Positions 24,434 through 54,585 are shown, counted from the first letter of the stretch. The stretch: 64,000 nt of DNA from Escherichia coli (GCF_003790525.1 NZ_CP033635.1), one strand, 5' to 3'. Notes: generated by a model not told the origin, from the sequence alone. Program-made: numbers and translations.

Positions 24434-25859
24434 TAATGCCAGTCAGTTAAGCAACTGACTGGCTCTTTTTCGGGGCTGTGGGGTATTTCCAGGGCCTCTC
24501 CTTTACCACTCTCGGGAAGGCCCTTTCCCTTCTTGTCGGTAATTTCACAAGTTGTCCCATACTTGCAAGATCGCGCATCAGCTCCGGTATACGTCCCGGT
24601 GAAGCGCCCTGCAATGTCATCAGCATTCTCATCACCATTCCACATGATTCTGAGAAACTCAGTTGATTCGGCCAGTAACCTTTCAGATATTCCGCCATTT
24701 TAATCATCTGATATCTCACCAGATTATAAGCCAGTAAGACACCCCACAGCTCTTGCTCCACAAGCTCCGGTTTTTTACTTCTCAGCGTCAGCCTGCTCAG
24801 TTGCATCGTCTGTTTTATCTCCCTGTATCCCAGTTCGATTTCCCAGCGATGACTGTACAGATCCGCCATTTCTCCTCCGGGGAAGCGCATGGCGTCCGTC
24901 ATCGACGTCAGCAGATGGCAGACTTTTCCTTTGCGCGTCACGGTCAGCAGGCGGGCTGTCACTTCATTTCCCAGTCCCGGCCACTTTTTTCGTGCCTGCG
25001 GGCTGGTTTTCAGCTTCACCAGATGATCGCCTTTACCCAGTTTTCTGATCTCTTCATATTGCGCTCCCTTTCTGAGAGGTATCATCCAGTGGCGGTGTTC
25101 TCCCGCCAGGCTCCAGGCATTTAACAGTCCCAGTGAGTAATAACCTTTATCCATTAACGTCAGAGTGTTATCGCCGGTTTGTTCTATAAGTTGCTCAGCA
25201 AGCTCATTTTCGCTGTTCTTCATCGTGCCGAAGGCTGCAGCCGTCAGCAGATGGCTGGTCAGTTCCATCTGGCAGACCATTTTGACCTGCGGGTAGAGCG
25301 CCGGGTTCCCGGCATGTGTCTGGCGGGGGAAGGCTGCATCGTTCTCTGGTGTATCCGGTGTGCGCCAGAACACACCATCGATGGCCAGCAGGGTCAGGCC
25401 GCACCAGTGCGGATGCGGCGTGGCGTTATGCCAGAGCTGCGCTGTTTTCGTGAACACGCGGCGGACAGCCTCACTTCCCAGGCGCTGGCGGGCCTGAATA
25501 ACGGCACTGGGGGCAACGAAGGGGCGATTGCCCGGCAGCATGATGTCCAGGCGATTCACAATCTGGTGAAGAGGTTCTTTACGCTCAAGCGCCATGCCAA
25601 CAATACACCAGACCATCATTTCGAGGGGAAGACGGCGCTTGCGTAGCGTTACAGTACCTGATTCGGCAAGGCAACGAGAGATGAGTTCGGGGTCGAGGTA
25701 ATCCCCCAGAGAAGTCAGTGGGTTACGCAGAGAATCGTAACGGGATACCAGATCAAGAGCCTGTCCAATGTGCATAAAAAAATCCGGAAACAAGTGAGCG
25801 TTTCCGGATTCTTACACAGCCACTGGATCGGTCAACTGATCCTTAACTGATCGGCATTA
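24434..25859 (-). mobile_element. IS4 insertion sequence
   Basis: about 1426 bp; terminal imperfect IRs (taatgccagtcagttaag / cttaactgatcggcattac); flanked by direct repeat cagccttcgggctg (13-14 bp); contains DDE transposase. Confidence 0.9.
24447..25775 (-). CDS. insG: IS4 transposase
   Basis: about 442-aa IS4-family DDE transposase ([15 protein letters not shown]...); track start 25793 is a short extension. Confidence 0.9.
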
Positions 25860-26769: not shown

Positions 26770-27918
26770 TCACCAACGGTCGGATGAACCGCCGCCTCCT
26801 GAAGAACCGCCGCCACCGCGGAAAGAATTTTTCGACGAAGAGCGAGAATGAGCATTACGATTCCCCGTTTTCCTGTTGCTTTTTTCTCCTGACCCCAGCT
26901 TAAGATTGCCAGTAAATTTGGCCACAATGATCAGCAGAACGATGCCAGCAATGGTTATTGGGCCGATAAAATGATCAATTAACCCAATAATTGTTGAGAT
27001 GAATGCTATATCTTTATTACTGGCGAATACCAGGCACCATCCCACAACAATTATCAGCAGCACGACAAACAATGAGTTTCGTTCGGATTGAGAAACCTGC
27101 TGAGTCGTCTTTTGTTTTTTCACTTTAGCGTTTTTATTTTTTGGGGCCAGCATCATAGGAAATACGCGATACATATGAAAAATTACCGCGAGACGCTGCC
27201 AGCAGGTTGCTGCGAAAAATAAACTAAAACAAACGAGCGATACCCGCCGAATGATGACATCATCCTGAAAGAAGAAAAACCAGACCATAGGAGTAATCAT
27301 CGATATCATCCATATGCCAGGCCCGGGACGGCTGGTAAATCGCCAGAGGACAACGATGGCAACGATCATCAGTAATGTCCAGGCAAGACATGGCAGCGAG
27401 CGTTGCGGATTAGCAAACAGATGATTGGCTAAAGCATCCAAAGGGCTAAGATTCGCTTTTATATAGGTAAACTGTGCGATGCCTTCAATTCCCTGCGTTA
27501 ACCCGGAGAAGAGATTATTTTTTTTGAATTCCGGTTGCATATGGTAATGAACAATTTGCGCAGCTTGTTCCGGTGGCAGCATCTCTTTCAGTCCATGCCC
27601 AATCTTCATTGACGCCAGCCCTTCCGGCCAAACGACGAGAATTAAGATACCTTCGCCGTACCGCTTCTCTCCAACGGGTTTCCAGTGATATAACCCGTAG
27701 CTCTGAGAGGCTGCAAGTTTAATGTTTTTGCCCCCTGTGGTCGGCGTAACCAACACGGCCACCTGGAAGTGGTTTTGCTGCTCGAGAGTCTGTAATTGTT
27801 GATTTAAAGCAGTTTGTTCTTCTGTCGTTAATGTCCCGGTTAAGTCAGTTACTGAAGGCAATTGTTCAGCGAATGCCTGGAAACCATATAGCATCAGAAG
27901 TAAGAGAAAAATACGCAT
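26770..27918 (-). CDS. TPM-domain membrane protein, divergent paralogue
   Basis: 382 aa; signal peptide, divergent TPM-like domain, several TM segments, Lys-rich linker, C-terminal [15 protein letters not shown]. Confidence 0.7.
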
Positions 27919-27932
27919 TTCAATTCCTTTTG

Positions 27933-28826
27933 TTACCAGCGCCCGGAGGCGCCACCGCCGCCAGATGAACCGCCGCCGCCGCGGAAATTGTCATTGTCGA
28001 ATGAAGAGGATGACGATGACGAATAGTGGGAGGAAGAATTACTTCTTGTATGGCGTGATGGCTGGTTGGTATTACGCATCGAATCCCGAACCTTTTTGCC
28101 GAAGGGAGTAAAAGCGATGGCGACAGCCAGGAACGGTGTGGCGAAGCAGAGTAATGTTGCGAGCACTCCCCAGCTTCCGCTGAAACCTGCTATAGGTAAA
28201 ACAAAGGCCAGTACAATAGCTGCGAAGCAAATCAGTCCCAGCGTTTTGATATATCCTCTGGCAGAAATAAACGTCAGTATTATCGCCCAGACTAACAAAG
28301 CCCACCAACCGCTAAAGGGCAAAGGGTGATCGGTCGGTGTTATCGTTGCTGAATTATTCCCCGTCAGGCGACTTTCAATATCGTTGATCCCCTTTTGTAA
28401 ACCACCAGCCAGGTCGCCTTTTTTAAATGCCGGAATAATACTGTTGCGAATAATTTTCCCGGACTGTACATCCGTAATAATACCTTCCAGTCCGTAACCG
28501 ATTTCAATACGCACGGTATGATCCTGCCAGGCGACTAACAGTAGAACGCCATCATCGCGGTCTTTATCACCCGGTTTCCAGCTATCGAATACCCGCGTTG
28601 CGTACTGCTCGATGGTTTCATCGCCTGTTGTATCAACCACTAACACGACCAACTGTGCGTGGTTTTTTTGCGTCAGGGCTTTAATCTGGTTGGTCAGGGT
28701 GTTTACTTCGCTGTTTGTTAATGTGCCGGTTAAGTCATTCACATACTTGGGGGATTCAGGTACTGGAATTTGTGTGGCAAACACAGATGAACAGAAGAAA
28801 GCCATAAGGAAGATAAAATTTCGCAT
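27933..28826 (-). CDS. TPM-domain membrane protein, close paralogue of YgcG
   Basis: about 297 aa from MRNFIFLMAFF; shares [11 protein letters not shown] and VAW-D-TVRI-GYGLE blocks with ygcG; C-terminal [15 protein letters not shown]. Confidence 0.75.
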   Translation of the reverse strand: MRNFIFLMAFFCSSVFATQIPVPESPKYVNDLTGTLTNSEVNTLTNQIKALTQKNHAQLVVLVVDTTGDETIEQYATRVFDSWKPGDKDRDDGVLLLVAWQDHTVRIEIGYGLEGIITDVQSGKIIRNSIIPAFKKGDLAGGLQKGINDIESRLTGNNSATITPTDHPLPFSGWWALLVWAIILTFISARGYIKTLGLICFAAIVLAFVLPIAGFSGSWGVLATLLCFATPFLAVAIAFTPFGKKVRDSMRNTNQPSRHTRSNSSSHYSSSSSSSFDNDNFRGGGGSSGGGGASGRW

Positions 28827-28839
28827 AGAACTTCCCCGC

Positions 28840-29442
28840 TTAATGCGCATTAGCATTCTGGCTAAAATCTATTGTTGGGGCTTTACTTACTGCGGTGACA
28901 TCATCCGGCAAATAATTTTTCTTTGGTGTGTAATCCATGACCTTTGCGGTTAATACAGCGGGGAATTTGCGGATAGTGACATTATATTGTTCAATGGCTT
29001 TAATATATCTTCCTCGCGCAACGGCAATTCTATTTTCACTTCCTTCGAGCTGTACCATTAAGTTTTGATAGAGTTCCTGAGCTTTTAACTCAGGGTAACG
29101 TTCACTAATTATCGTTAACTGACCGAGAGTGCGAGACACCTGCGCCTGGGCTTGTTGCCAGGCTTGTAATTTTTGCGCATCTCCCGGAGCTTGCTGAAGA
29201 TCGCTACTGGCGCGATTAGCCTGGCTACGTGCCAATGTTACGGCTTCCAGTACCTCTTGTTCATGGCTAGAATAACCTTTAATACTGGCGACAAGATTAG
29301 GAATAAGATCGGCGCGACGTTGATATTGATTCAATACCTCAGACCAGGAGGCGTTAACCTGCTCATCATAGGTTTGAATATCGTTATATCCACAGCCTGA
29401 TAAATTGACAATAAATATAATTACGATGAATATCCTGAGCAT
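28840..29442 (-). CDS. lemA: LemA-family lipoprotein
   Basis: 200 aa; lipobox LSGC at N-terminus; LemA proteins typically sit next to TPM-domain genes. Confidence 0.75.
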   Translation of the reverse strand: MLRIFIVIIFIVNLSGCGYNDIQTYDEQVNASWSEVLNQYQRRADLIPNLVASIKGYSSHEQEVLEAVTLARSQANRASSDLQQAPGDAQKLQAWQQAQAQVSRTLGQLTIISERYPELKAQELYQNLMVQLEGSENRIAVARGRYIKAIEQYNVTIRKFPAVLTAKVMDYTPKKNYLPDDVTAVSKAPTIDFSQNANAH

Positions 29443-29614
29443 GTCTATGTCCCTTTTAATTAATTCCTTAAAACATAATACGCCGCTTCATTTTATTCTT
29501 TATGATCTCATCCACTTTTTGCCTTAAACCTGCCTGTAACAGAATGTTAATAAGACATGATTGTTGTGGCAGGATCTGCAATAATTAACAATTATCCACT
29601 TCACAGAGAATGCT

Positions 29615-30286
29615 ATGCAGTACCCGATTAACGAGATGTTCCAGACCCTGCAAGGTGAGGGTTACTTTACCGGCGTCCCCGCCATTTTTATTCGTTTACA
29701 GGGATGCCCGGTTGGCTGTGCCTGGTGCGACACCAAACACACCTGGGAAAAGCTTGAGGATCGGGAAGTCTCCCTTTTCAGCATTCTGGCGAAGACCAAA
29801 GAGAGTGATAAGTGGGGGGCGGCGAGCAGTGAAGATTTGCTGGCTGTCATTGGTCGGCAGGGATATACCGCGCGGCATGTGGTGATTACGGGTGGTGAGC
29901 CTTGCATTCATGATTTGCTGCCACTGACTGACCTGCTCGAAAAGAACGGTTTTAGCTGCCAGATCGAAACCAGCGGTACTCATGAAGTACGCTGCACGCC
30001 GAATACCTGGGTTACCGTATCGCCAAAGCTGAACATGCGCGGCGGCTATGAAGTGTTGTCACAGGCACTGGAGCGAGCCAACGAAATCAAGCATCCAGTG
30101 GGACGCGTACGTGATATTGAAGCACTGGATGAACTACTGGCAACGCTGACCGATGATAAACCGCGAGTCATTGCACTCCAGCCGATTAGCCAAAAGGATG
30201 ATGCCACACGTTTGTGCATTGAAACCTGCATTGCGCGTAATTGGCGTTTGTCGATGCAAACACATAAATATCTAAATATTGCCTGA
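29615..30286 (+). CDS. queE: 7-carboxy-7-deazaguanine synthase (radical SAM)
   Basis: 223 aa with CxxxCxxC-like radical-SAM Cys cluster (GCPVGCAWCDT). Confidence 0.9.
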   Translation: MQYPINEMFQTLQGEGYFTGVPAIFIRLQGCPVGCAWCDTKHTWEKLEDREVSLFSILAKTKESDKWGAASSEDLLAVIGRQGYTARHVVITGGEPCIHDLLPLTDLLEKNGFSCQIETSGTHEVRCTPNTWVTVSPKLNMRGGYEVLSQALERANEIKHPVGRVRDIEALDELLATLTDDKPRVIALQPISQKDDATRLCIETCIARNWRLSMQTHKYLNIA

Positions 30287-30371
30287 TTTGATTATTCATC
30301 ATTAATATTTAACGTTCAGGTTGAAAAACAATCGCCCCGTTTTACAGGGGCGATGCAAGATAGTGACGGGA

Positions 30372-31379
30372 TTATCGGTAGCGTTTTTGTAGACTGGCAG
30401 GAAGATAACGCTGTAATGGGGATGGCGTTTCACCTTCAATCAGTTGCGAAATAAGTTCAAAGCAGTGAAAAGCAAGTTGGCGATTATCCTGTTGTATTGT
30501 GTCGATTCTTACCGAAAGTGAATCATACAAGTAATGATCATCAAAACTCGCCAGGTGGATTTTACTGTCGAGTAAATTATATTGGCTCATATAGCGCAGA
30601 ACGCCTTCCAGTAATCCACAAGCGGCAGTGAATAAGGCTTTAGGGGGACGTCCTAAACGAGCGCATAGCGCGGCAAACATTTCATAGCCTGAGCTCGGAT
30701 GATAATTACCGTGAATAATCCATTCAGGTTGTAGCGTTACTCCGGCTTGCTGCAAGCCTTGTGTAAATCCTTCCAGTCGATCGCGAGTCGGTGACAAACG
30801 GGGTTGTCCGCCCAGAAAATAGAATTCATCCGGGTGACTCCGTGCAATATCTGCCACCAGAGCGGCGGTGGGAGAAACAGAGTCAGTAATGACCAATGGC
30901 AATGTGCTGCCGTTCATGTGGCGATCGAACAACACAACAGGTAATTGCTCGCTAAGTTTTTGATAGTCATTATCATGCAGCATACTGGATGCGACGATTA
31001 ACCCATCAACCTGGCGGGCAATCATATTGTTCACCACCATTGTTTCCTGTGAAGGATTTTCATCAGTACAGGATATGAGGAGTTGGACTCCCGCTTCCCG
31101 ACACAATGTTTCCAGTTCATGGGAAAATACTGCAAATCCGTAGTTAGTGATTTCAGGAACGACGAGACCAATGGTGTGACTGCGGTTGTCCCGTAATGAG
31201 CGGGCATGAATGCTGGGCTGATAATGCTGCTGTTGGGCAATACTCAGCACACGCTCACGCGTTTCCTGCGCAACACGTAACTCTTTGCCACGACCATTGA
31301 GAACCAGACTGGCGGTTGCTTTCGACACTCCCGCCAGTTCAGCAATGTCTTTAATAGTAACGCGTTTGGTTTTTCTCAC
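30372..31379 (-). CDS. scrR: LacI-family sucrose operon repressor
   Basis: 335 aa; N-terminal HTH ([22 protein letters not shown]) plus periplasmic-binding-like fold; last gene of the scr cluster. Confidence 0.8.
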
Positions 31380-31404
31380 GACGAGGATCCGTAATTCAAA
31401 ACCC

Positions 31405-32814
31405 TCATTCTACCATGCAGGCGCGTAGCGACCAGTAGTGTAACGTGACGTCAGACTCGCCCTGTAATATCAGCGAAGCTGGATGATGGGGAAAATAACG
31501 ATTGCTCATTACGCCTTCGCCATTATTGATGAATATCTCTATGCTGGAACTGTCACAGAGAATCTTCAGTGACGTTACGCTTCCTCGCCAGTAACGAGTT
31601 AGTTTCTCTTGCCCTGCAAGGCTTTTCCTCTGTAGTTGAATACCATCGTCATTAAGATGCAGTGCCAGTGCGTTGCCAAAATTCAGATGTAGCTCGCCTG
31701 ATGGAATGATGTCCATTTCCAGACGTTCAATTGCGACAGGCGGCGCATGATCCGCTTTTCCTTGCCAGAAGTGTTCAGCTTCACGCAGTTGCGCGAGTTC
31801 CCTGATTGGCATCTGAAATAATTTTCCCTTCTGGAATGAGAGTTCGCGAAAACAGGTCATTTGATGCTGCCAATGATGCTTTCTGGTTGGTTGCAACATC
31901 TCTTCGCCATCAGGAACCCCCATCCAGCCGACCAGTAATCGTCGCCCGTCCGGGGCTTCCATCGTCTGTGGTGCATAGAATTCAAATCCCGCATCCAGCT
32001 CTGAGAAAGCGCCATGCGTAAATTTGCCTGTCTCGTAATCAAACTGTCCATGTAGCCAGGCGCAGGGATAGGTATTCAGATAGCGCTCATGTTCGCGCGC
32101 CATTCCCTGGGGGCAGCAGAGGAGAATGTATTCACCATCAAGGGCGAAAAGATCAGGACATTCCCACATGTATCCTGCGTTATCAATTTCATTCAGACCA
32201 TTACCAGCAATTTCTCCATGAAAAGACCAGGTATAGAGATCGACAGAGGAATACAGCAGCACTTTCCCCCGTTTCTCTTTATCTTGCGCGCCAAGCACCA
32301 TGTACCATCGGCTGTTGTGCTTCCAGACTTTTGGATCACGAACATGTCCGGTGTAACCATCAGGTAACGGTATGACAGGGCCTAATTTATCAAACCCGCC
32401 CTGGTTATTTTCGGTGGCCAGACATTGCCATGCCGTTCTGCTGCCATCATCAAACTTAACATTACCGGTATAGCAAAGTGTGAGAACGCCCTGATTATTA
32501 ACCGCGCTTCCTGAGTAACAACCATTACGGTCATACTCTTTATCGGGCATTAGCGCTAATGGTTCATGCTGCCAGTGCAATAAATCCGTCGAACTCCAGT
32601 GCCCCCAACATTTGTACTTATGATTACAATCCAATGGATTCCACTGATAAAACAGATGATAGCGGCCTCCTGACCAGCAAAAGCCATTTGGATCGTTCAT
32701 TAGTCCGGTGACGGGAGCGAGATGCCAACAAGGATAGTGGGCATCTGCCTGTGCTTTGGACTGACCTTTCATCACTGCCTGTAAAATCGCGGGCATTTGT
32801 GAAGGCATCGACAT
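31405..32814 (-). CDS. scrB: sucrose-6-phosphate hydrolase (GH32 invertase)
   Basis: 469 aa with GH32 NDPNG catalytic motif. Confidence 0.85.
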
Positions 32815-34184
32815 TACTCCTCGTCTGTTTTGTATTTGAGCAATAAAGAGAGACTAAAAGCGACAGCGAAAGCAATCACCATTCCAATAATATAATTAAC
32901 CAACGATGTTGGCTGAACGATTGCCATGCCGGGTATTGCGGTCAGACCAACGGCAGTCATATAAACGTGAACAGAGACAACCCAGGCACCGCCGGCAGCG
33001 CCACCAATTAAGGCCGCAATAAAAGGTTTAACAAAACGAAGGTTGATACCAAAAATAGCGGCTTCAGTAATCCCTAACATTGCGGAAAAAGCCGAGGGTA
33101 GGGTGATTGCTTTAATTTTTGTATCTTTGGTTTTAAACCATACCGCCAGACATGCACCGCCTTGCGCAACGTTTGCCATTGCCCAAATAGGCAGCAGGAA
33201 ATTAACACCGATTGCAGGGTTACCTAAAAGTCCTGCTTCAATTGCGTGGAAGCTATGATGAATACCCGTAATAACAATCGCTGAATATAGCCCGCCGAAT
33301 AACAACCCCGCTAACCAGCCAGCGTGTGCAATCAGCGTGCTGAGAACGAAAGAGATACCATCACCTAACGCTCGCCCTGCCGGACCAATAATTAAAAGAG
33401 CGATAAAGCCAGAAATGACGACAGTCAGAAATGGCGTCAGAATGAGATCCAGAGCATCAGGGATAAACCTGCGTAACTGTTTTTCCACTATGCTCATAAA
33501 CCATACTGCCAGAAGCACGGGGAAAACCGTTCCCTGATAGCCAATCATGGCGATTTCAAAACCGAAGAAGTTCATTGTCTGAAATCCCGCAGCAACGCCC
33601 CAGGCATTTGTGAGTGCCGGGTGAGTCAGAATCCCTCCTAATGTCGCGCCAAGATAAGGATTTCCACCAAATTCACGAGCAGCAGTAAAGCCAATCAGGA
33701 TGGGGAGAATAATAAATGCGGCTGAACTGCACATATCCAGCAGGATATAAATCGCATTATCGGCATTCACCCAGCCATATGTTTTCACCATTCCCAGAAG
33801 CCCCATTAATAAACCAGAAGCAACAATGGCAGGAATGATGGGGACAAAAATATTAGAAAGCAGCCGTGCTATTCGCTGAAAAGGATTGAGTTTTTGAGCG
33901 GCGAGTCGAGCGGTATCTGCTTTACTGGATTCGCTAATACCCGCAACCTGAATAAAGGCAGCATAGACTTTATTAACCACGCCGGTGCCAAAGATGATCT
34001 GCATTTGCCCTGAATTACGAAAACAACCTTTCACTCCATCAATCTGGCCAATGGCATGTTGATCGGCAAGTGTGTCGTCAACCAGTACCAGCCGTAGGCG
34101 AGTGGCGCAATGTGCTGCACTGGCGATGTTCTCCTTACCACCTAATAAAGGAAGCAACGATTGGGCGATTTTATCGAAATCCAT
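32814..34184 (-). CDS. scrA: PTS sucrose-specific EIIBC component
   Basis: 456 aa; N-terminal EIIB Cys motif (CATRLRL) followed by polytopic EIIC. Confidence 0.85.
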   Translation of the reverse strand: MDFDKIAQSLLPLLGGKENIASAAHCATRLRLVLVDDTLADQHAIGQIDGVKGCFRNSGQMQIIFGTGVVNKVYAAFIQVAGISESSKADTARLAAQKLNPFQRIARLLSNIFVPIIPAIVASGLLMGLLGMVKTYGWVNADNAIYILLDMCSSAAFIILPILIGFTAAREFGGNPYLGATLGGILTHPALTNAWGVAAGFQTMNFFGFEIAMIGYQGTVFPVLLAVWFMSIVEKQLRRFIPDALDLILTPFLTVVISGFIALLIIGPAGRALGDGISFVLSTLIAHAGWLAGLLFGGLYSAIVITGIHHSFHAIEAGLLGNPAIGVNFLLPIWAMANVAQGGACLAVWFKTKDTKIKAITLPSAFSAMLGITEAAIFGINLRFVKPFIAALIGGAAGGAWVVSVHVYMTAVGLTAIPGMAIVQPTSLVNYIIGMVIAFAVAFSLSLLLKYKTDEE

Positions 34185-34244
34185 ATAACCCTCTAATTCA
34201 TTGTTATTTCAGTAAAAGCCTCACATTCGTGAGGCTGTCTGGTA

Positions 34245-35786
<1,542 letters not shown>

Positions 35787-35805
35787 TTATAAAAATTGCT
35801 AAAAT

Positions 35806-35879
35806 GCTAAACCGGTTTAGGTGTTGATAATAAAGCTGACTTTTTAGCCAGAGCAATTATTTTCGCTAAACCGATTTAG
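35806..35879. promoter_or_regulatory. two palindromic operator-like sites (gctaaaccggtttag at 35806-35820; gctaaaccgatttag at 35865-35879) in the scrY promoter region
   Basis: near-perfect LacI-type palindromes TAAACCGGTTTA in the scrK-scrY intergenic region. Confidence 0.55.
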
Positions 35880-35929
35880 TAAATGTGACAGGCACGACAA
35901 ATCGGGTTACAGATACAACAGCAGGATCA

Positions 35930-36850
35930 CTATTGTGAAGGGAGATCGTGTTGTCGGGGTAAGGCGGTTATCGCGCCTTTAGCCGTGGTCGCCAGAGCAC
36001 CACAAATCTGAGCTTGTGCAATGATTCGTTCAAGCTGTCTGGTATTTGTTGGTATTCCAGAATCAGCCAGACCTGCAAGTAATCCAGCGACAAAAGCATC
36101 TCCTGCCCCGGTCGTATCGACGACAGAAACAGGTTTGGCGGGATAGTGGATAAACTGCCCCTGAAAATACACAAGTACGCCATTTTTTCCTTGTGTAATA
36201 AGCAATAAAGTCAACGAATAACGTTGTACTAATGAATATGCGCCTTGCTGAACCTGGCTTTCGCCACTGATGAATAGCAACTCTTCTTCGGACAATTTAG
36301 CGATATTCGCCAGCGAAAGTGCGCGATCAAGGTATTTCCTTAATAGCGCTTCACTCTGCCAGAGATCGCTGCGGATATTGGGATCAAAACTGATGTTTCC
36401 GCCAGCCTGACGTATTTTCTCCATAGCCAGAAATGCGGTACTTCGGGAAGGTTCTGCACTGAGCGCAATGGAACAAAGATGGAGCCATTCACCCGGCCCA
36501 AATGCAGGAAGGTCACCAGGTTGTAAAAAAAGATCGGCACTTGGGCGTACCATAAAGGTAAAGTTTCTTTCTCCTTGCTCATCAAGTCCTACAGCCACAA
36601 TTGAGGTGCGTTGTTGAGGATCAAGAGACATATAATGTGTATCAACATTTTCTGTACTCAGTGTCTGATACATAAAGCGACCGAAAGGATCATCGCCAAC
36701 TTTGCCAATAAAGGCACTTTTCCCCCCCAGCCTTGCGATACCGACTGCAACATTAGCAGGCGCCCCGCCAGGACACTGTAGTAGTCTCCCCTGGCTTTCG
36801 GGTAATAAATCAACAACCGCATCACCGAGTACCCATACTCTTGCGCTCAT
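35930..36850 (-). CDS. scrK: fructokinase (PfkB family)
   Basis: 306 aa with PfkB signature (DTTGAGDAF). Confidence 0.85.
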   Translation of the reverse strand: MSARVWVLGDAVVDLLPESQGRLLQCPGGAPANVAVGIARLGGKSAFIGKVGDDPFGRFMYQTLSTENVDTHYMSLDPQQRTSIVAVGLDEQGERNFTFMVRPSADLFLQPGDLPAFGPGEWLHLCSIALSAEPSRSTAFLAMEKIRQAGGNISFDPNIRSDLWQSEALLRKYLDRALSLANIAKLSEEELLFISGESQVQQGAYSLVQRYSLTLLLITQGKNGVLVYFQGQFIHYPAKPVSVVDTTGAGDAFVAGLLAGLADSGIPTNTRQLERIIAQAQICGALATTAKGAITALPRQHDLPSQ

Positions 36851-36870
36851 AAAGGCTCCAATATACTAAT

Positions 36871-36897
36871 TGCTAAACTAATTAAATCGGTTTAGCA
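36871..36897. promoter_or_regulatory. inverted repeat tgctaaac-N11-gtttagca upstream of scrK (operator-like)
   Basis: shares the gctaaac half-site with the scrY operator-like palindromes. Confidence 0.45.
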
Positions 36898-37014
36898 ATT
36901 AAAGCATAAACGCTGCTCAGGAGAGAACAATATTCAGCAGTGGTTACCCGGTATTTTGTGGTGGAAACGTGAATATGCCGGGATTAATCATCTACCCGGC
37001 ACTGTTTATCTCAC

Positions 37015-38493
37015 TTACGCATTCGACCAGCTCTGGATCGAATCTTCATTCCCCAGCTCACCATGCATCACTTCATACGATTTTTTCAGGATCACATCAG
37101 TGTGCTTGGTTAGGTCTTTGAAAATGCCTTTATTCATCGCGTCGTAGCGTTTGGCGTTGCTCTCAACAGGCATAAAGATATCTTTCACGCGAACCATTTT
37201 GTCGACAGCCGTTGCGTAATCCGGGTATAGCCCCAGACCTGCCGCCGTATTGATCGCAGCCCCCAGACTTGCACAACCATTAATGGCGTTTCGGCGTGCC
37301 GGAAGGTTGAACACGTCGGCAAAAATCTGCATAAACAGATCGCTGTTCGAACCGCCGCCAGTAATGATCACATGCTTTGCAAAGTGATTCATTTCATTAC
37401 ACATATTGTCGTAATTGTTCTTCAGCGTCAGCGCCACGCTTTCCAGTATCGAACGATATATCCATGCGTAATCCATGCTGGAATCAAAGCCGATCATAAT
37501 CCCGCGTTTGTATGGTTCCCACGGATTGGTCAGCCAGTCCAGCACCGTCATCAGACCATTACAGCCAGGCGGCACACAAGACGCTTTTTTGTTGAGCAAA
37601 TCTTCCGGTGAAAGATCCTGTGCTTTGGCATCCTGAATTAACGACTCGCCTAGCATGTCGCGTAGCCAGCTCACCGTCCACATGCCTTTGCGAATACCGT
37701 AACCTTCATACAGCAAGGTTTGCGGAATAGAAGACATAATCGGCCAGTACGCTACCGGATCTTTCGGCAGTGCTTTGCCGTTCATCATCAACGCGATGTA
37801 AGTGCCAAGAGAAATTACCGCCGTTTCATCATCCAGTAACCCTGCTCCCAGTGCTTCTACCGGTTTATCACTGGTGGTACAAACAACGGGCAGTCCAACC
37901 GGGAAATGTGTCGCCAGCGCGGCTTGTGGTGTGATATGCCCAAGAACAGTGCCCGGCATTTGCACATCAAAAAGCATCTGTCGGGGAATATTAAACTTCT
38001 CCATTACCGCGGTATCTTCGCTCCATGCCCAGGTCTTATAATCCACCGGCCACTGACCAAAATAGTTGGCGATATTGTCTTTAAACTCGCCGGTTAAACG
38101 GTGTGTCAGATAACCTGAAAAAGAGGTGACATATGCCACATCAGGATTGGTGTGCTCGTAGGGACGTGTAACGCGTGCATCCTGCCAGCTAATCAACGGC
38201 GCAGCTGGCGTGCCATCGGCTTTCAATAACGCACGGCAGCAACGGATGGATCCCAGACCAATACCGACAATATCTTCTTTATTTCCGGCAAACTGACTCA
38301 TCAAATCGTGACCGGCAAAACATAATGATGCCCATAAATCGTCGTCAGGATGTTCTGCGGTATCGGCATCTGGCGTGTGCATCGGCTGCAATAAGCCTTT
38401 GCCTTCGCAAACCACATTACCTTCCAGATCATACATCACCACTTTTGTGCTCTGACTTCCGCCATCAATCCCTATGATGTATTTTTTCGACAT
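37015..38493 (-). CDS. ygcE: FGGY-family carbohydrate kinase
   Basis: 492-aa FGGY kinase; conserved K-12 position. Confidence 0.85.
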   Translation of the reverse strand: MSKKYIIGIDGGSQSTKVVMYDLEGNVVCEGKGLLQPMHTPDADTAEHPDDDLWASLCFAGHDLMSQFAGNKEDIVGIGLGSIRCCRALLKADGTPAAPLISWQDARVTRPYEHTNPDVAYVTSFSGYLTHRLTGEFKDNIANYFGQWPVDYKTWAWSEDTAVMEKFNIPRQMLFDVQMPGTVLGHITPQAALATHFPVGLPVVCTTSDKPVEALGAGLLDDETAVISLGTYIALMMNGKALPKDPVAYWPIMSSIPQTLLYEGYGIRKGMWTVSWLRDMLGESLIQDAKAQDLSPEDLLNKKASCVPPGCNGLMTVLDWLTNPWEPYKRGIMIGFDSSMDYAWIYRSILESVALTLKNNYDNMCNEMNHFAKHVIITGGGSNSDLFMQIFADVFNLPARRNAINGCASLGAAINTAAGLGLYPDYATAVDKMVRVKDIFMPVESNAKRYDAMNKGIFKDLTKHTDVILKKSYEVMHGELGNEDSIQSWSNA

Positions 38494-38519
38494 GATTTTT
38501 CTCCTGTAATTTTCTGGAC

Positions 38520-39797
38520 TTACTTGCTGCTAGCCATAGCAGGGGCGCTATCAGCAGTACGAATTTTTTGGAACAGCAAAAAGGTAAAGATGATCACCAT
38601 GGCAAGCGCCGCCATGCCCATTAGCCACATGTTGCGGTAGGCTTCTGCAGCGGGCAGGGTGTCTTGCCAGTGGCCGATAATCGGGTAAACGAAGACATCC
38701 GGCAGGAATCCAATCACCGAACAAATACCTACCGTGGTGCCCATAATGTAAGACGGTGTTCTCGCTTCGCCGGGGCAGGCCCAGTACAGTCCACGTGAGG
38801 CGTAGCAGGTGAATCCCAGTAGTAAAATCAGGCCAATCCCCATAGCGACCGATTGCGGGTTAGAGTTGGTAACAAGCAGGGCAGTCAGTGCCAGCAGGCC
38901 GATGATGGAAAGGATTTGAATTACGCGGGTAGGGGATTTCACTTTACTGTAGGTGGTGATAATGCCGCCAAGTGGACCACACAGCGCGCGGAAGATTTTG
39001 TTGATCACAATCCCCATGTAGCTCGCCGCCACCAGCGACATGCCGTACATTTCGGTGAGATAGTTGGTGGAGTAACTCAGAATGGCGTAGATGGTGAAGA
39101 CGCCAAAAATCACCATGCTGCAATACCAGGTGGTGCTGATGCGCAAAACAGCCAGGATGTCGCTAAGCTGGAATGATTGTTTTTCTTCGTTATTGGCACT
39201 GCGCAGGTTGTTGTTATCGCTAACAAAAAACCAGCACAGAATCCCCAACAAGATGTAAACCACACTATAGATGATAATGACCGTTTTCAGGCTGGCGCTG
39301 TCATCCGGTGCAAAGCGAGAAAAGACCCACATGGTAAACACCGCCAGCGACATTACACCGACGCCGCGCAGCCCTTCCATCCAGCCCATAATTTTCCCTT
39401 GCTCGCTATGATCGCCCAGCAACGATGCGGCTTTAATCGACACCGACCACAGCATTAAAATCGTCGTTATCGCAAAGGCAACCTGAATACAGAGCATTAC
39501 CCACAGCGGTGGATAAGTTGCCATTAACAGACCCAGTAATCCGGTAATGATCATCGCGGAAGTAATCATTTTGCGATGTGAGAATTTATCGGCAATAACG
39601 CCACTGGGCGCATAAAGAATAATAGCTGCAATACCAAAGGTACTCATTATTAAACCTATCTCGGTATTGCTGAATCCCATAAATTTCGCCATGGGAATTT
39701 GATAAATATAACGTAAATAAGCCAGGTCGAAACTAACGCCGCCGCTAAAACTAATTATCGCGAGGGTTATCCAACGGCGATATGAGTTGTGTTGCAT
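38520..39797 (-). CDS. yqcE: MFS transporter
   Basis: 425-aa polytopic MFS protein downstream of ygcE. Confidence 0.8.
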   Translation of the reverse strand: MQHNSYRRWITLAIISFSGGVSFDLAYLRYIYQIPMAKFMGFSNTEIGLIMSTFGIAAIILYAPSGVIADKFSHRKMITSAMIITGLLGLLMATYPPLWVMLCIQVAFAITTILMLWSVSIKAASLLGDHSEQGKIMGWMEGLRGVGVMSLAVFTMWVFSRFAPDDSASLKTVIIIYSVVYILLGILCWFFVSDNNNLRSANNEEKQSFQLSDILAVLRISTTWYCSMVIFGVFTIYAILSYSTNYLTEMYGMSLVAASYMGIVINKIFRALCGPLGGIITTYSKVKSPTRVIQILSIIGLLALTALLVTNSNPQSVAMGIGLILLLGFTCYASRGLYWACPGEARTPSYIMGTTVGICSVIGFLPDVFVYPIIGHWQDTLPAAEAYRNMWLMGMAALAMVIIFTFLLFQKIRTADSAPAMASSK

Positions 39798-53246: not shown

Positions 53247-54585
53247 CATAAGCGCTAACTTAAGGGTTGTGGTATTACGCCTGATATGATTTAACGTGCC
53301 GATGAATTACTCTCACGATAACTGGTCAGCAATTCTGGCCCATATTGGTAAGCCCGAAGAACTGGATACTTCGGCACGTAATGCCGGGGCTCTAACCCGC
53401 CGCCGCGAAATTCGTGATGCTGCAACTCTGCTACGTCTGGGGCTGGCTTACGGCCCCGGGGGGATGTCATTACGTGAAGTCACTGCATGGGCTCAGCTCC
53501 ATGACGTTGCAACATTATCTGACGTGGCTCTCCTGAAGCGGCTGCGGAATGCCGCCGACTGGTTTGGCATACTTGCCGCACAAACACTTGCTGTACGCGC
53601 CGCAGTTACGGGTTGTACAAGCGGAAAGAGATTGCGTCTTGTCGATGGAACAGCAATCAGTGCGCCCGGGGGCGGCAGCGCTGAATGGCGACTACATATG
53701 GGATATGATCCTCATACCTGTCAGTTCACTGATTTTGAGCTAACCGACAGCAGAGACGCTGAACGGCTGGACCGATTTGCGCAAACGGCAGACGAGATAC
53801 GCATTGCTGACCGGGGATTCGGTTCGCGTCCCGAATGTATCCGCTCACTTGCTTTTGGAGAAGCTGATTATATCGTCCGGGTTCACTGGCGAGGATTGCG
53901 CTGGTTAACTGCAGAAGGAATGCGCTTTGACATGATGGGTTTTCTGCGCGGGCTGGATTGCGGTAAGAACGGTGAAACCACTGTAATGATAGGCAATTCA
54001 GGTAATAAAAAAGCCGGAGCTCCCTTTCCGGCACGTCTCATTGCCGTATCACTTCCTCCCGAAAAAGCATTAATCAGTAAAACCCGACTGCTCAGCGAGA
54101 ATCGTCGAAAAGGACGAGTAGTTCAGGCGGAAACGCTGGAAGCAGCGGGCCATGTGCTATTGCTAACATCATTACCGGAAGATGAATATTCAGCAGAGCA
54201 AGTGGCTGATTGTTACCGTCTGCGATGGCAAATTGAACTGGCTTTTAAGCGGCTCAAAAGTTTGCTGCACCTGGATGCTTTGCGTGCAAAGGAACCTGAA
54301 CTCGCGAAAGCGTGGATATTTGCTAATCTACTCGCCGCATTTTTAATTGACGACATAATCCAGCCATCGCTGGATTTCCCCCCCAGAAGTGCCGGATCCG
54401 AAAAGAAGAACTAACTCGTTGTGGAGAATAACAAAAATGGTCATCTGGAGCTTACAGGTGGCCATTCGTGGGACAGTATCCCTGACAGCCTACAAAACGC
54501 AATTGAAGAACGCGAGGCATCGTCTTAACGAGGCACCGAGGCGTCGCATTCTTCAGATGGTTCAACCCTTAAGTTAGCGCTTATG
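53247..54585 (+). mobile_element. IS186 insertion sequence
   Basis: 1339 bp; perfect 23-bp terminal IRs (cataagcgctaacttaagggttg); flanking about 11-bp direct repeat gggtaaaaccc within a GGGG-N6-CCCC palindrome. Confidence 0.9.
53302..54414 (+). CDS. insL: IS186 transposase (IS4 family)
   Basis: about 370 aa from MNYSHDNWSAILAHIGKPEEL, recognisable as the IS186 transposase. Confidence 0.9.
   Translation: MNYSHDNWSAILAHIGKPEELDTSARNAGALTRRREIRDAATLLRLGLAYGPGGMSLREVTAWAQLHDVATLSDVALLKRLRNAADWFGILAAQTLAVRAAVTGCTSGKRLRLVDGTAISAPGGGSAEWRLHMGYDPHTCQFTDFELTDSRDAERLDRFAQTADEIRIADRGFGSRPECIRSLAFGEADYIVRVHWRGLRWLTAEGMRFDMMGFLRGLDCGKNGETTVMIGNSGNKKAGAPFPARLIAVSLPPEKALISKTRLLSENRRKGRVVQAETLEAAGHVLLLTSLPEDEYSAEQVADCYRLRWQIELAFKRLKSLLHLDALRAKEPELAKAWIFANLLAAFLIDDIIQPSLDFPPRSAGSEKKN

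Follow-up and report, generated by a model that had tools for sequence, protein, structure and literature searches.

A sucrose (scr) locus adjoining the core gene queE has been described previously in Escherichia coli. Touchon & Rocha (2010), who mentioned strain SMS-3-5 by name, called the sucrose operon there a "recent insertion" (PMC2886076). Stephens et al. (2024) found scr next to queE in nearly all scr-positive isolates of phylogroups B2 and F with closed genomes, and equated this site with the position of CRISPR2.2, a second CRISPR (clustered regularly interspaced short palindromic repeat) array, citing Diez-Villasenor 2010 and Trevino-Quintanilla 2007. According to the same study, scr replaces approximately 0.5 kb of non-homologous DNA, no insertion sequence (IS) or transposable element flanks it, and four of the six phylogroup F strains of the E. 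coli reference (ECOR) collection carry it; scrA was also noted in 12% of the E. albertii genomes in RefSeq (PMC11251922). In a 2025 survey of urinary isolates, scr genes were present at this site in 47% of the strains (PMC12736100). Here we describe the scrKYABR locus between queE and ygcE (positions 30287-37014) within a stretch of 64,000 nucleotides of E. coli DNA (GCF_003790525.1, NZ_CP033635.1), hereafter referred to as the window. Over positions 29500-38500 the window is 100% identical to the chromosome of SMS-3-5 (NC_010498.1), and elsewhere the identity is 99.99%, except for a 1,337-bp insertion at 53248-54584. The presence of the locus, together with the open question of its acquisition, has already been published, for SMS-3-5 and for many lineages. 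The exact breakpoints, population frequency, conserved operator layout, mosaic flanks and mobile copies reported below refine this picture and do not change it.

Mapping of open reading frames (ORFs) revealed that the spacer between the convergent queE and ygcE genes holds five co-oriented genes on the minus strand. On the basis of homology and of published near-identical alleles, these were assigned as a sucrose regulon dependent on the phosphotransferase system (PTS). The genes and the adjoining features are as follows.

29615-30286, plus strand: queE (ygcF), left flanking core gene (TIGR04322, 368 bits; RefSeq annotation)
30289-30370, minus strand: left junction segment of 82 bp, carrying the scrR terminator hairpin
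30372-31379, minus strand: scrR, repressor of the LacI/FruR subfamily, 335 amino acids (aa) (TIGR02417; N-terminal helix-turn-helix)
31405-32814, minus strand: scrB, sucrose-6-phosphate hydrolase (GH32), 469 aa (TIGR01322 and motifs)
32814-34184, minus strand: scrA, sucrose-specific PTS EIIBC, 456 aa (TIGR01996 and motifs)
34245-35762, minus strand: scrY, sucrose porin, 505 aa (alignment to PDB 1A0S; N-terminal sequence)
35930-36850, minus strand: scrK, ATP-dependent fructokinase of the pfkB family, 306 aa (NF006957 and motifs)
36964-37009, minus strand: right junction segment of 46 bp, with a hairpin GCCGGG-N12-CCCGGC at 36977-37000
37015-38493, minus strand: ygcE, kinase of the FGGY family, right flanking core gene (RefSeq annotation)

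Four of the predicted proteins exceed the curated NCBIfam cut-offs over essentially the full length of the models: ScrR (TIGR02417, 462.8 bits against a cut-off of 389.55, model positions 1-326 of 327), ScrB (TIGR01322, 548 against 356), ScrA (TIGR01996, 649.6 against 559, model positions 2-460 of 461) and ScrK (NF006957, 506 against 450). The motifs expected of functional enzymes are also present. ScrB has LMNDPNG (residues 38-44), RDP (159) and ECP (218), so its catalytic triad is intact; ScrA carries CATRLR (with Cys26) and GITE (371), and has no IIA domain; ScrK contains GGAPAN and DTTGAGD. The fifth protein, ScrY, was compared with the solved structure of pUR400 ScrY (PDB 1A0S), to which residues 93-505 align over 413 of 413 positions (E = 1.7e-226, 77% identity). 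This alignment places it among the LamB-fold sucrose porins, and at the N-terminus an extension of about 70 aa accompanies a signal peptide. The gene order, scrK-scrY-scrA-scrB-scrR on one strand, is the same in the aligned scr loci of other Enterobacterales. An earlier note, made from the sequence of the window alone, had proposed a complete scrKYABR regulon and had named pseudogenization as the finding that would overturn it; since the profile matches are full-length and the functional motifs are preserved, the genes are considered intact and the possibility of pseudogenes was rejected.

The position of the island, which the note had given as the queE-ygcE interval and the site of CRISPR2 in K-12, was corroborated by the TIGR04322 match and the annotation of the flanks, as well as by the K-12 derivative used for comparison, whose spacer of 1,372 bp between the two genes contains the annotated array. 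CRISPR2 is thus located at this site and not at a different one. Mapping of the breakpoints against K-12 by blastn, which the note had recommended, showed that homology stops at 30288, 2 bp past the queE stop codon, and resumes at 37010, 5 bp before the stop codon of ygcE. A segment of 6,721 bp therefore stands for the entire 1,365-bp spacer of K-12, including the CRISPR2 array. The breakpoints are identical when two scr-negative strains are used instead; their spacers are shorter and keep degenerate CRISPR repeats, with one remnant some 45 bp away from the stop codon of ygcE. The left junction segment shows no homology to K-12-type spacers. In the place of the hairpin of the right segment, just downstream of ygcE, K-12 has a different one (GGCCGGGC-N8-GCCCGGCC), and both may be read as ygcE terminators. 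The G+C content of the inserted segment (0.44-0.49) resembles that of its neighbours and gives no signal.

Two genomes lacking a CRISPR annotation between queE and ygcE were seen to hold two or three recognizable type I-E repeats there (locus L002, 1623-1709; locus L003, 1626-1715 and 2216-2239). The lack of an annotated array is therefore not equivalent to the lack of repeats.

To the published locus of phylogroups B2 and F (Stephens et al.; Touchon & Rocha) the copy in the window bears no essential difference. The locus and the site are the same, the module is 98.7-99.4% identical to those of sequence type 131 (ST131), E2348/69 and NC101, and the junction segments align base for base apart from a few single nucleotide polymorphisms (SNPs). 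The relationship to the regulons of the Salmonella plasmid pUR400 and of Klebsiella pneumoniae is more distant. Gene order, an EIIBC component without IIA, the N-extended ScrY and a repressor of the FruR subfamily are common to all of them, and operator-like sites occur at the same offsets as in K. pneumoniae ATCC 13883 (one before scrK and two before scrY). The genomic context differs from both. At the protein level the identity to K. pneumoniae is 74% for ScrY, 65% for ScrB, 69% for ScrK, 85% for ScrR and 91% for ScrA, and mature ScrY is 77% identical to that of pUR400, a comparison made through structure 1A0S only. The description "pUR400/Klebsiella-type" used in the note is thus appropriate for gene order and regulatory layout, but not for sequence.

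Two further systems are of interest for comparison. CTnscr94, a conjugative transposon, reportedly occupies a tRNA-Phe site in Salmonella Senftenberg. A similar situation was found in E. coli NCTC9966, where a copy of the scr module is located in a tRNA-Phe island beside a tyrosine recombinase gene; unlike these, the scr copy of the window is not accompanied by a tRNA gene, an integrase or genes for conjugation. The csc regulon (cscB, cscK, cscA and cscR) is, like scr, a variable chromosomal sucrose pathway in an alternatively used site (csc versus dsd). It differs in being a non-PTS system that consists of a proton symporter and an invertase at another locus, whereas scr combines a PTS with a sucrose-6-phosphate hydrolase. 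No csc genes were detected within the scr segment in the NCBIfam scan.

Relatives were sought among 100,044 species representatives, from which 80 loci were retrieved for ScrY, and, for ScrB, in a collection of 5.8 billion proteins. The best identities to other species were 83% for ScrY, 93% for ScrA, 87% for ScrR, 74% for ScrK and 70% for ScrB. The exception was one 98%-identical metagenome fragment of an unassigned member of the Enterobacteriaceae, found in the ScrY search. In the protein collection a single ScrB cluster was present at 98%, the named members read from it being all E. coli, and the next matches were at 70-71% (Lelliottia and Cedecea). Neither queE nor ygcE lies within 10 kb of scr in any of these 80 loci from other species. 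A near-identity search of PLSDB returned E. coli plasmids with the native module, as well as Pantoea and Enterobacter plasmids at 72-76%. Judged from these comparisons, the locus is best assigned to an E. coli-specific "native" scr lineage and not to a recent import from pUR400 or Klebsiella.

To identify possible traces of the replaced array, both the K-12 and the SMS-3-5 variants of the type I-E repeat were compared with the region by Hamming distance, with shuffled sequences as controls. The best match in 30287-37014 had 12 mismatches in 29 positions, no better than in shuffled sequence, and the best matches in the two flanks had 14-16, equal to the controls; an Rfam scan of 29000-39000 likewise detected no CRISPR repeat family. 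Degenerate repeats in the flanks or the insert were accordingly rejected, and no 29-nucleotide type I-E repeats or remnants lie between queE and ygcE in this genome. The repeats found in the window are confined to CRISPR1, which is seen between 63427 and the end of the window. Direct or inverted repeats bracketing the segment amounted to short, chance-level matches, which were dismissed as target duplications or attachment (att) sites. The ORF map, repeat scan and annotation revealed no integrase, transposase, tRNA gene, att site or flanking repeat in 29400-38500, and the annotation from the LemA-family gene to yqcE likewise includes neither an integrase nor a transposase. The site therefore lacks the features of an integrative and conjugative element (ICE), a genomic island or a composite transposon. 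In these respects (no CRISPR repeat in either flank, and no integrase, IS or direct repeats around the island) the statements of the note were borne out, also by the search for degenerate copies that it had advised.

The contiguous arrangement queE-scr-ygcE was found in 840 of 5,426 complete E. coli genomes. A query spanning the right junction matched across it in exactly 840 genomes, all scr-positive; in the other genomes, among the records listed, only its ygcE half was matched. The scr module anywhere in the genome was detected in 986 genomes, with 40 copies on plasmids. The two junction segments occupy the same positions, with few SNPs, in the six strains aligned (SMS-3-5, TCM3e1, ST131, E2348/69, NC101 and PM06121), which points to one origin of the chromosomal arrangement.

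Outside this site, the core module (30371-36963 in the window) occurs at about 98% identity on 22 PLSDB plasmids, 21 of them typed as conjugative; one plasmid copy that was inspected is of the IncF type and has IS1 nearby. Besides the tRNA-Phe island of NCTC9966, other chromosomes carry the module beside IS66, or beside ISEcp1 with blaCTX-M-15. Common to the plasmid and island copies is a unit of 7,074 bp, which reaches 460 bp past scrR (locus L004, 7541-14613; locus L006, 5540-12613). The left 82-bp segment, present in the six chromosomal queE-ygcE copies, is absent from the plasmid and tRNA-Phe island copies compared, and the right 46-bp segment was found only with chromosomal queE-ygcE copies. 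Because the two mobile copies examined lack both segments, the chromosomal copy is not simply an inserted mobile element; no plasmid matched either junction query. The scr-bearing tRNA-Phe island was also observed to carry a type I restriction system.

Sequence divergence across the locus is uneven. Among the six scr-positive strains the module differs by 0.2-1.3%, whereas the maximum is 5.65% for queE and 4.7% for ygcE; between SMS-3-5 and ST131, the synonymous divergence (dS) of the scr genes is 0.009-0.089, compared with 0.26 for queE and 0.18 for ygcE. The haplotypes of the flanks do not follow scr status. In SMS-3-5 the 3′ end of queE is of the K-12 type as far as the base that adjoins the junction. 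The remaining five scr-positive strains have another queE 3′ haplotype, which also occurs in SCU-116, a strain without scr, and SMS-3-5 and TCM3e1 have a ygcE 3′ haplotype of their own.

The synonymous divergence of queE and ygcE across E. coli strains is very deep (dS 0.18-0.28, at most 5.8% nucleotide difference), their haplotypes are mosaic and do not track scr, and the values lie far above those of the scr genes between them. A recombination hotspot, introgression and balancing selection are candidate causes.

Taken at about 85% probability, our reading is that the window carries the E. coli "native" scrKYABR allele, produced by a single replacement of the CRISPR2 spacer and followed by homologous recombination in the flanks, a history that we infer from the sequence comparisons above. 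One non-homologous event would have exchanged the whole queE-ygcE spacer (CRISPR2 leader and array) for the 6.72-kb segment, beginning shortly after one stop codon and ending shortly before the other, with the segment bringing terminator-like hairpins at both ends. The event may date to an ancestor of phylogroups B2 and F, or to a lineage that served them as donor. Thereafter the allele would have been passed on and reassorted through homologous recombination in the core genes on either side, the recombination tracts of which can reach the homology boundary, and scr itself was possibly homogenized through the mobile copies. As the allele would spread by recombination in its flanks, no integrase or IS would be needed at the site. 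The note, like Stephens et al. (PMC11251922), who also observed no IS or transposable elements, had considered the mechanism of acquisition unclear; the present data may narrow it to one ancestral non-homologous replacement plus flank recombination.

Several points weigh against this reading. No donor was found in either of the two collections searched, the nearest ScrB outside E. coli being 70-71% identical, so the non-homologous step cannot be reconstructed. Breakpoints at the gene ends could also arise if a queE-scr-ygcE block had come from an unsampled relative and its coding flanks had later been overwritten. The argument for a single origin is built on six aligned strains and on counts of junction coverage, and the left-junction query reached at least 80% coverage in only 283 genomes. 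We attribute the latter number to B2-type junctions, in which SNPs and a 1-bp indel interrupt the megablast word match; it cannot serve as a census, and the right-junction count of 840 was used instead. Furthermore, a literature search on SMS-3-5 returned no statement on growth, expression or sucrose phenotype.

Among the competing explanations, the wording of Touchon & Rocha (PMC2886076) would make the locus a recent, strain-specific insertion into the SMS-3-5 lineage, and the full type I-E cas operon and CRISPR1 kept by this strain make the loss of the partner array look isolated. We consider this very improbable: 840 of 5,426 genomes, including the B2 strains ST131, E2348/69 and NC101, share the segment and its junctions, most of the ECOR phylogroup F strains mentioned above carry scr, and the SMS-3-5 module lies 1.1-1.3% from the B2 copies (dS up to 0.089), a distance that speaks for divergence between lineages and not for a fresh import. 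The junctions shared by 840 genomes and the 1.1-1.3% divergence of the F and B2 copies indicate that the allele is old, and it is only on the word "recent" that we disagree with the literature. The scr module does travel, as the 22 PLSDB plasmids, the NCTC9966 island and the IS66 and ISEcp1 neighbours demonstrate, and the flank haplotypes vary among scr-positive strains, which might be expected if a mobile element (a CTnscr94-like ICE, a genomic island or a composite transposon) had repeatedly inserted into the CRISPR2 spacer in a site-specific manner. There is very little chance that this happened, since the queE-ygcE site has neither an integrase nor a transposase, no tRNA gene, and no target-site duplication or terminal repeat, and the 82-bp and 46-bp segments are absent from the mobile copies examined but present, with SNPs of their own, in all six chromosomal copies. 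In addition, the mobile copies share the different, 7,074-bp unit and no plasmid matches the junction queries.

The direction of the exchange could also be reversed, scr being the ancestral occupant of the spacer that CRISPR2 replaced in most lineages. Outside E. coli this scr lineage lacks close relatives, its G+C content (0.44-0.49) is indistinguishable from that of the flanks, and Stephens et al. term the locus "native" (PMC11251922). On the other hand, CRISPR2 (placed between cysJ and ygcF) is present in nearly all Salmonella and Escherichia genomes surveyed (PMC2886076), for which reason the array is taken as the older state; the three scr-negative strains examined keep repeats or remnants at the site, reports of scr at this position concern mainly phylogroups B2 and F, and neither queE nor ygcE lies within 10 kb of any of the 80 scr loci of other species. 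An ancestral scr is therefore highly unlikely. More tentatively, and with some doubt on our part, scr and CRISPR2 may be long-lived alternative alleles of one slot. In that case scr would have come from one unsampled donor, as the roughly 70% identity of the nearest ScrB outside E. coli suggests, and would have spread by homologous recombination ending at the homology boundary, while exchange with the plasmid and tRNA-Phe copies would have kept it more uniform than its unusually divergent flanks. If true, this would be a clean natural example of the integrase-free spread of an island and of CRISPR-array loss by allelic replacement.

With respect to function, the model established for the pUR400 and Klebsiella systems can be applied. 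Sucrose would pass the outer membrane via the porin ScrY, and the PTS component ScrA would import and phosphorylate it. Since ScrA has no IIA domain, the phosphate would have to come from the housekeeping EIIA-Glc (Crr), a dependence that is well established. ScrB would then cleave sucrose-6-phosphate into glucose-6-phosphate and fructose, and the released fructose would be phosphorylated by ScrK. Until an inducer is present, ScrR would remain bound to one palindrome before scrK and to two before scrY. The predicted regulatory features of the locus are listed below.

30331-30354, minus strand: scrR terminator hairpin, ATCGCCCC-N8-GGGGCGAT followed by TTGTTTTTC (terminator scan)
35806-35821: operator-like perfect palindrome GCTAAACCGGTTTAGC, 59 nucleotides upstream of the scrY start codon (repeat scan, conserved position)
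35861-35856 and 35883-35878, minus strand: promoter-like site with -10 AATAAT and -35 TTTACT, respectively, overlapping the distal scrY palindrome
35865-35880: second operator-like palindrome GCTAAACCGATTTAGT, 118 nucleotides upstream of scrY (repeat scan, conserved position)
35884-35899: CRP-like TGTCG-N6-TCACA, just upstream of the distal scrY palindrome (read by eye)
36881-36896: operator-like palindrome, 46 nucleotides upstream of the scrK start codon, within a 35-bp inverted repeat (36867-36901)

The 16-bp palindrome GCTAAACCGGTTTAGC or a near-copy of it occurs three times in the locus, at -59 and -118 of scrY and at -46 of scrK. This arrangement is conserved: two such sites lie upstream of scrY in 55 of 73 related scr loci of other Enterobacterales (close to -58 and -117 in those listed), a single site precedes scrK in 66 of the 73 (by about 35 to 50 nucleotides), and only eight matches fell outside these positions in the 1.44 Mb scanned. 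The three palindromes are therefore regarded as putative ScrR operators. The one-plus-two layout fits that of the ScrR operators of pUR400 and Klebsiella. The CRP-like site suggests that scr is subject to catabolite control.

Published phenotypes are available for close relatives of the locus. When cloned into a plasmid, a closely related scr locus of a B2 isolate conferred sucrose fermentation and growth, and 20 of 24 scr-positive isolates grew on sucrose (PMC11251922). The locus explains the rapid use of sucrose by many B2 and F strains of E. coli, including ST131 and the enteropathogenic strain E2348/69, and is of interest as a feedstock trait. With the replacement by scr, CRISPR typing also loses one of its two type I-E arrays.

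The other of these arrays is present in the window. Within approximately 54.7-64.0 kb, as judged by transfer of the annotation of NC_010498.1, CRISPR1 and iap follow a complete type I-E cas operon (cas3, casA, casB, cas7e, cas5e, cas6e, cas1e and cas2e). The strain thus keeps the cas genes and one array while lacking CRISPR2. Nine CRISPR1 repeats are visible from 63427 to the window end, all of a G-to-A variant (CGGTTTATCCCCGCTGGCGCAGGGAACAC) that would turn one stem pair of the repeat RNA into a G-U pair. The 1,337-bp insertion that distinguishes the window from RefSeq NC_010498.1 is an IS186-type element (53248-54584), located between a hok/gef gene and cas3, in the upstream region of the latter. 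It encodes a 372-aa transposase of the IS4 family (53296-54414), has terminal repeats CATAAGCGCTAACTTAAGGGTTG and is flanked by a target duplication of about 11 bp (GGGTAAAACCC). The element might alter the expression of cas3.

To the left of queE, positions 26770-29442 contain a LemA-family gene and TPM-domain genes (one annotated as partial), in place of ygcG and yqcG of K-12 and ST131. Homology to these two strains begins only at about 29410, approximately 205 bp upstream of queE. The LemA-type arrangement is also present in TCM3e1, SCU-116 and strain 119, and the LemA/ygcG region constitutes a second presence/absence polymorphism beside that of scr and CRISPR2. The RefSeq record that matches the window also annotates a gene for an IS4 transposase at about 24447-25793, with the TPM-domain genes on one side and eno on the other.

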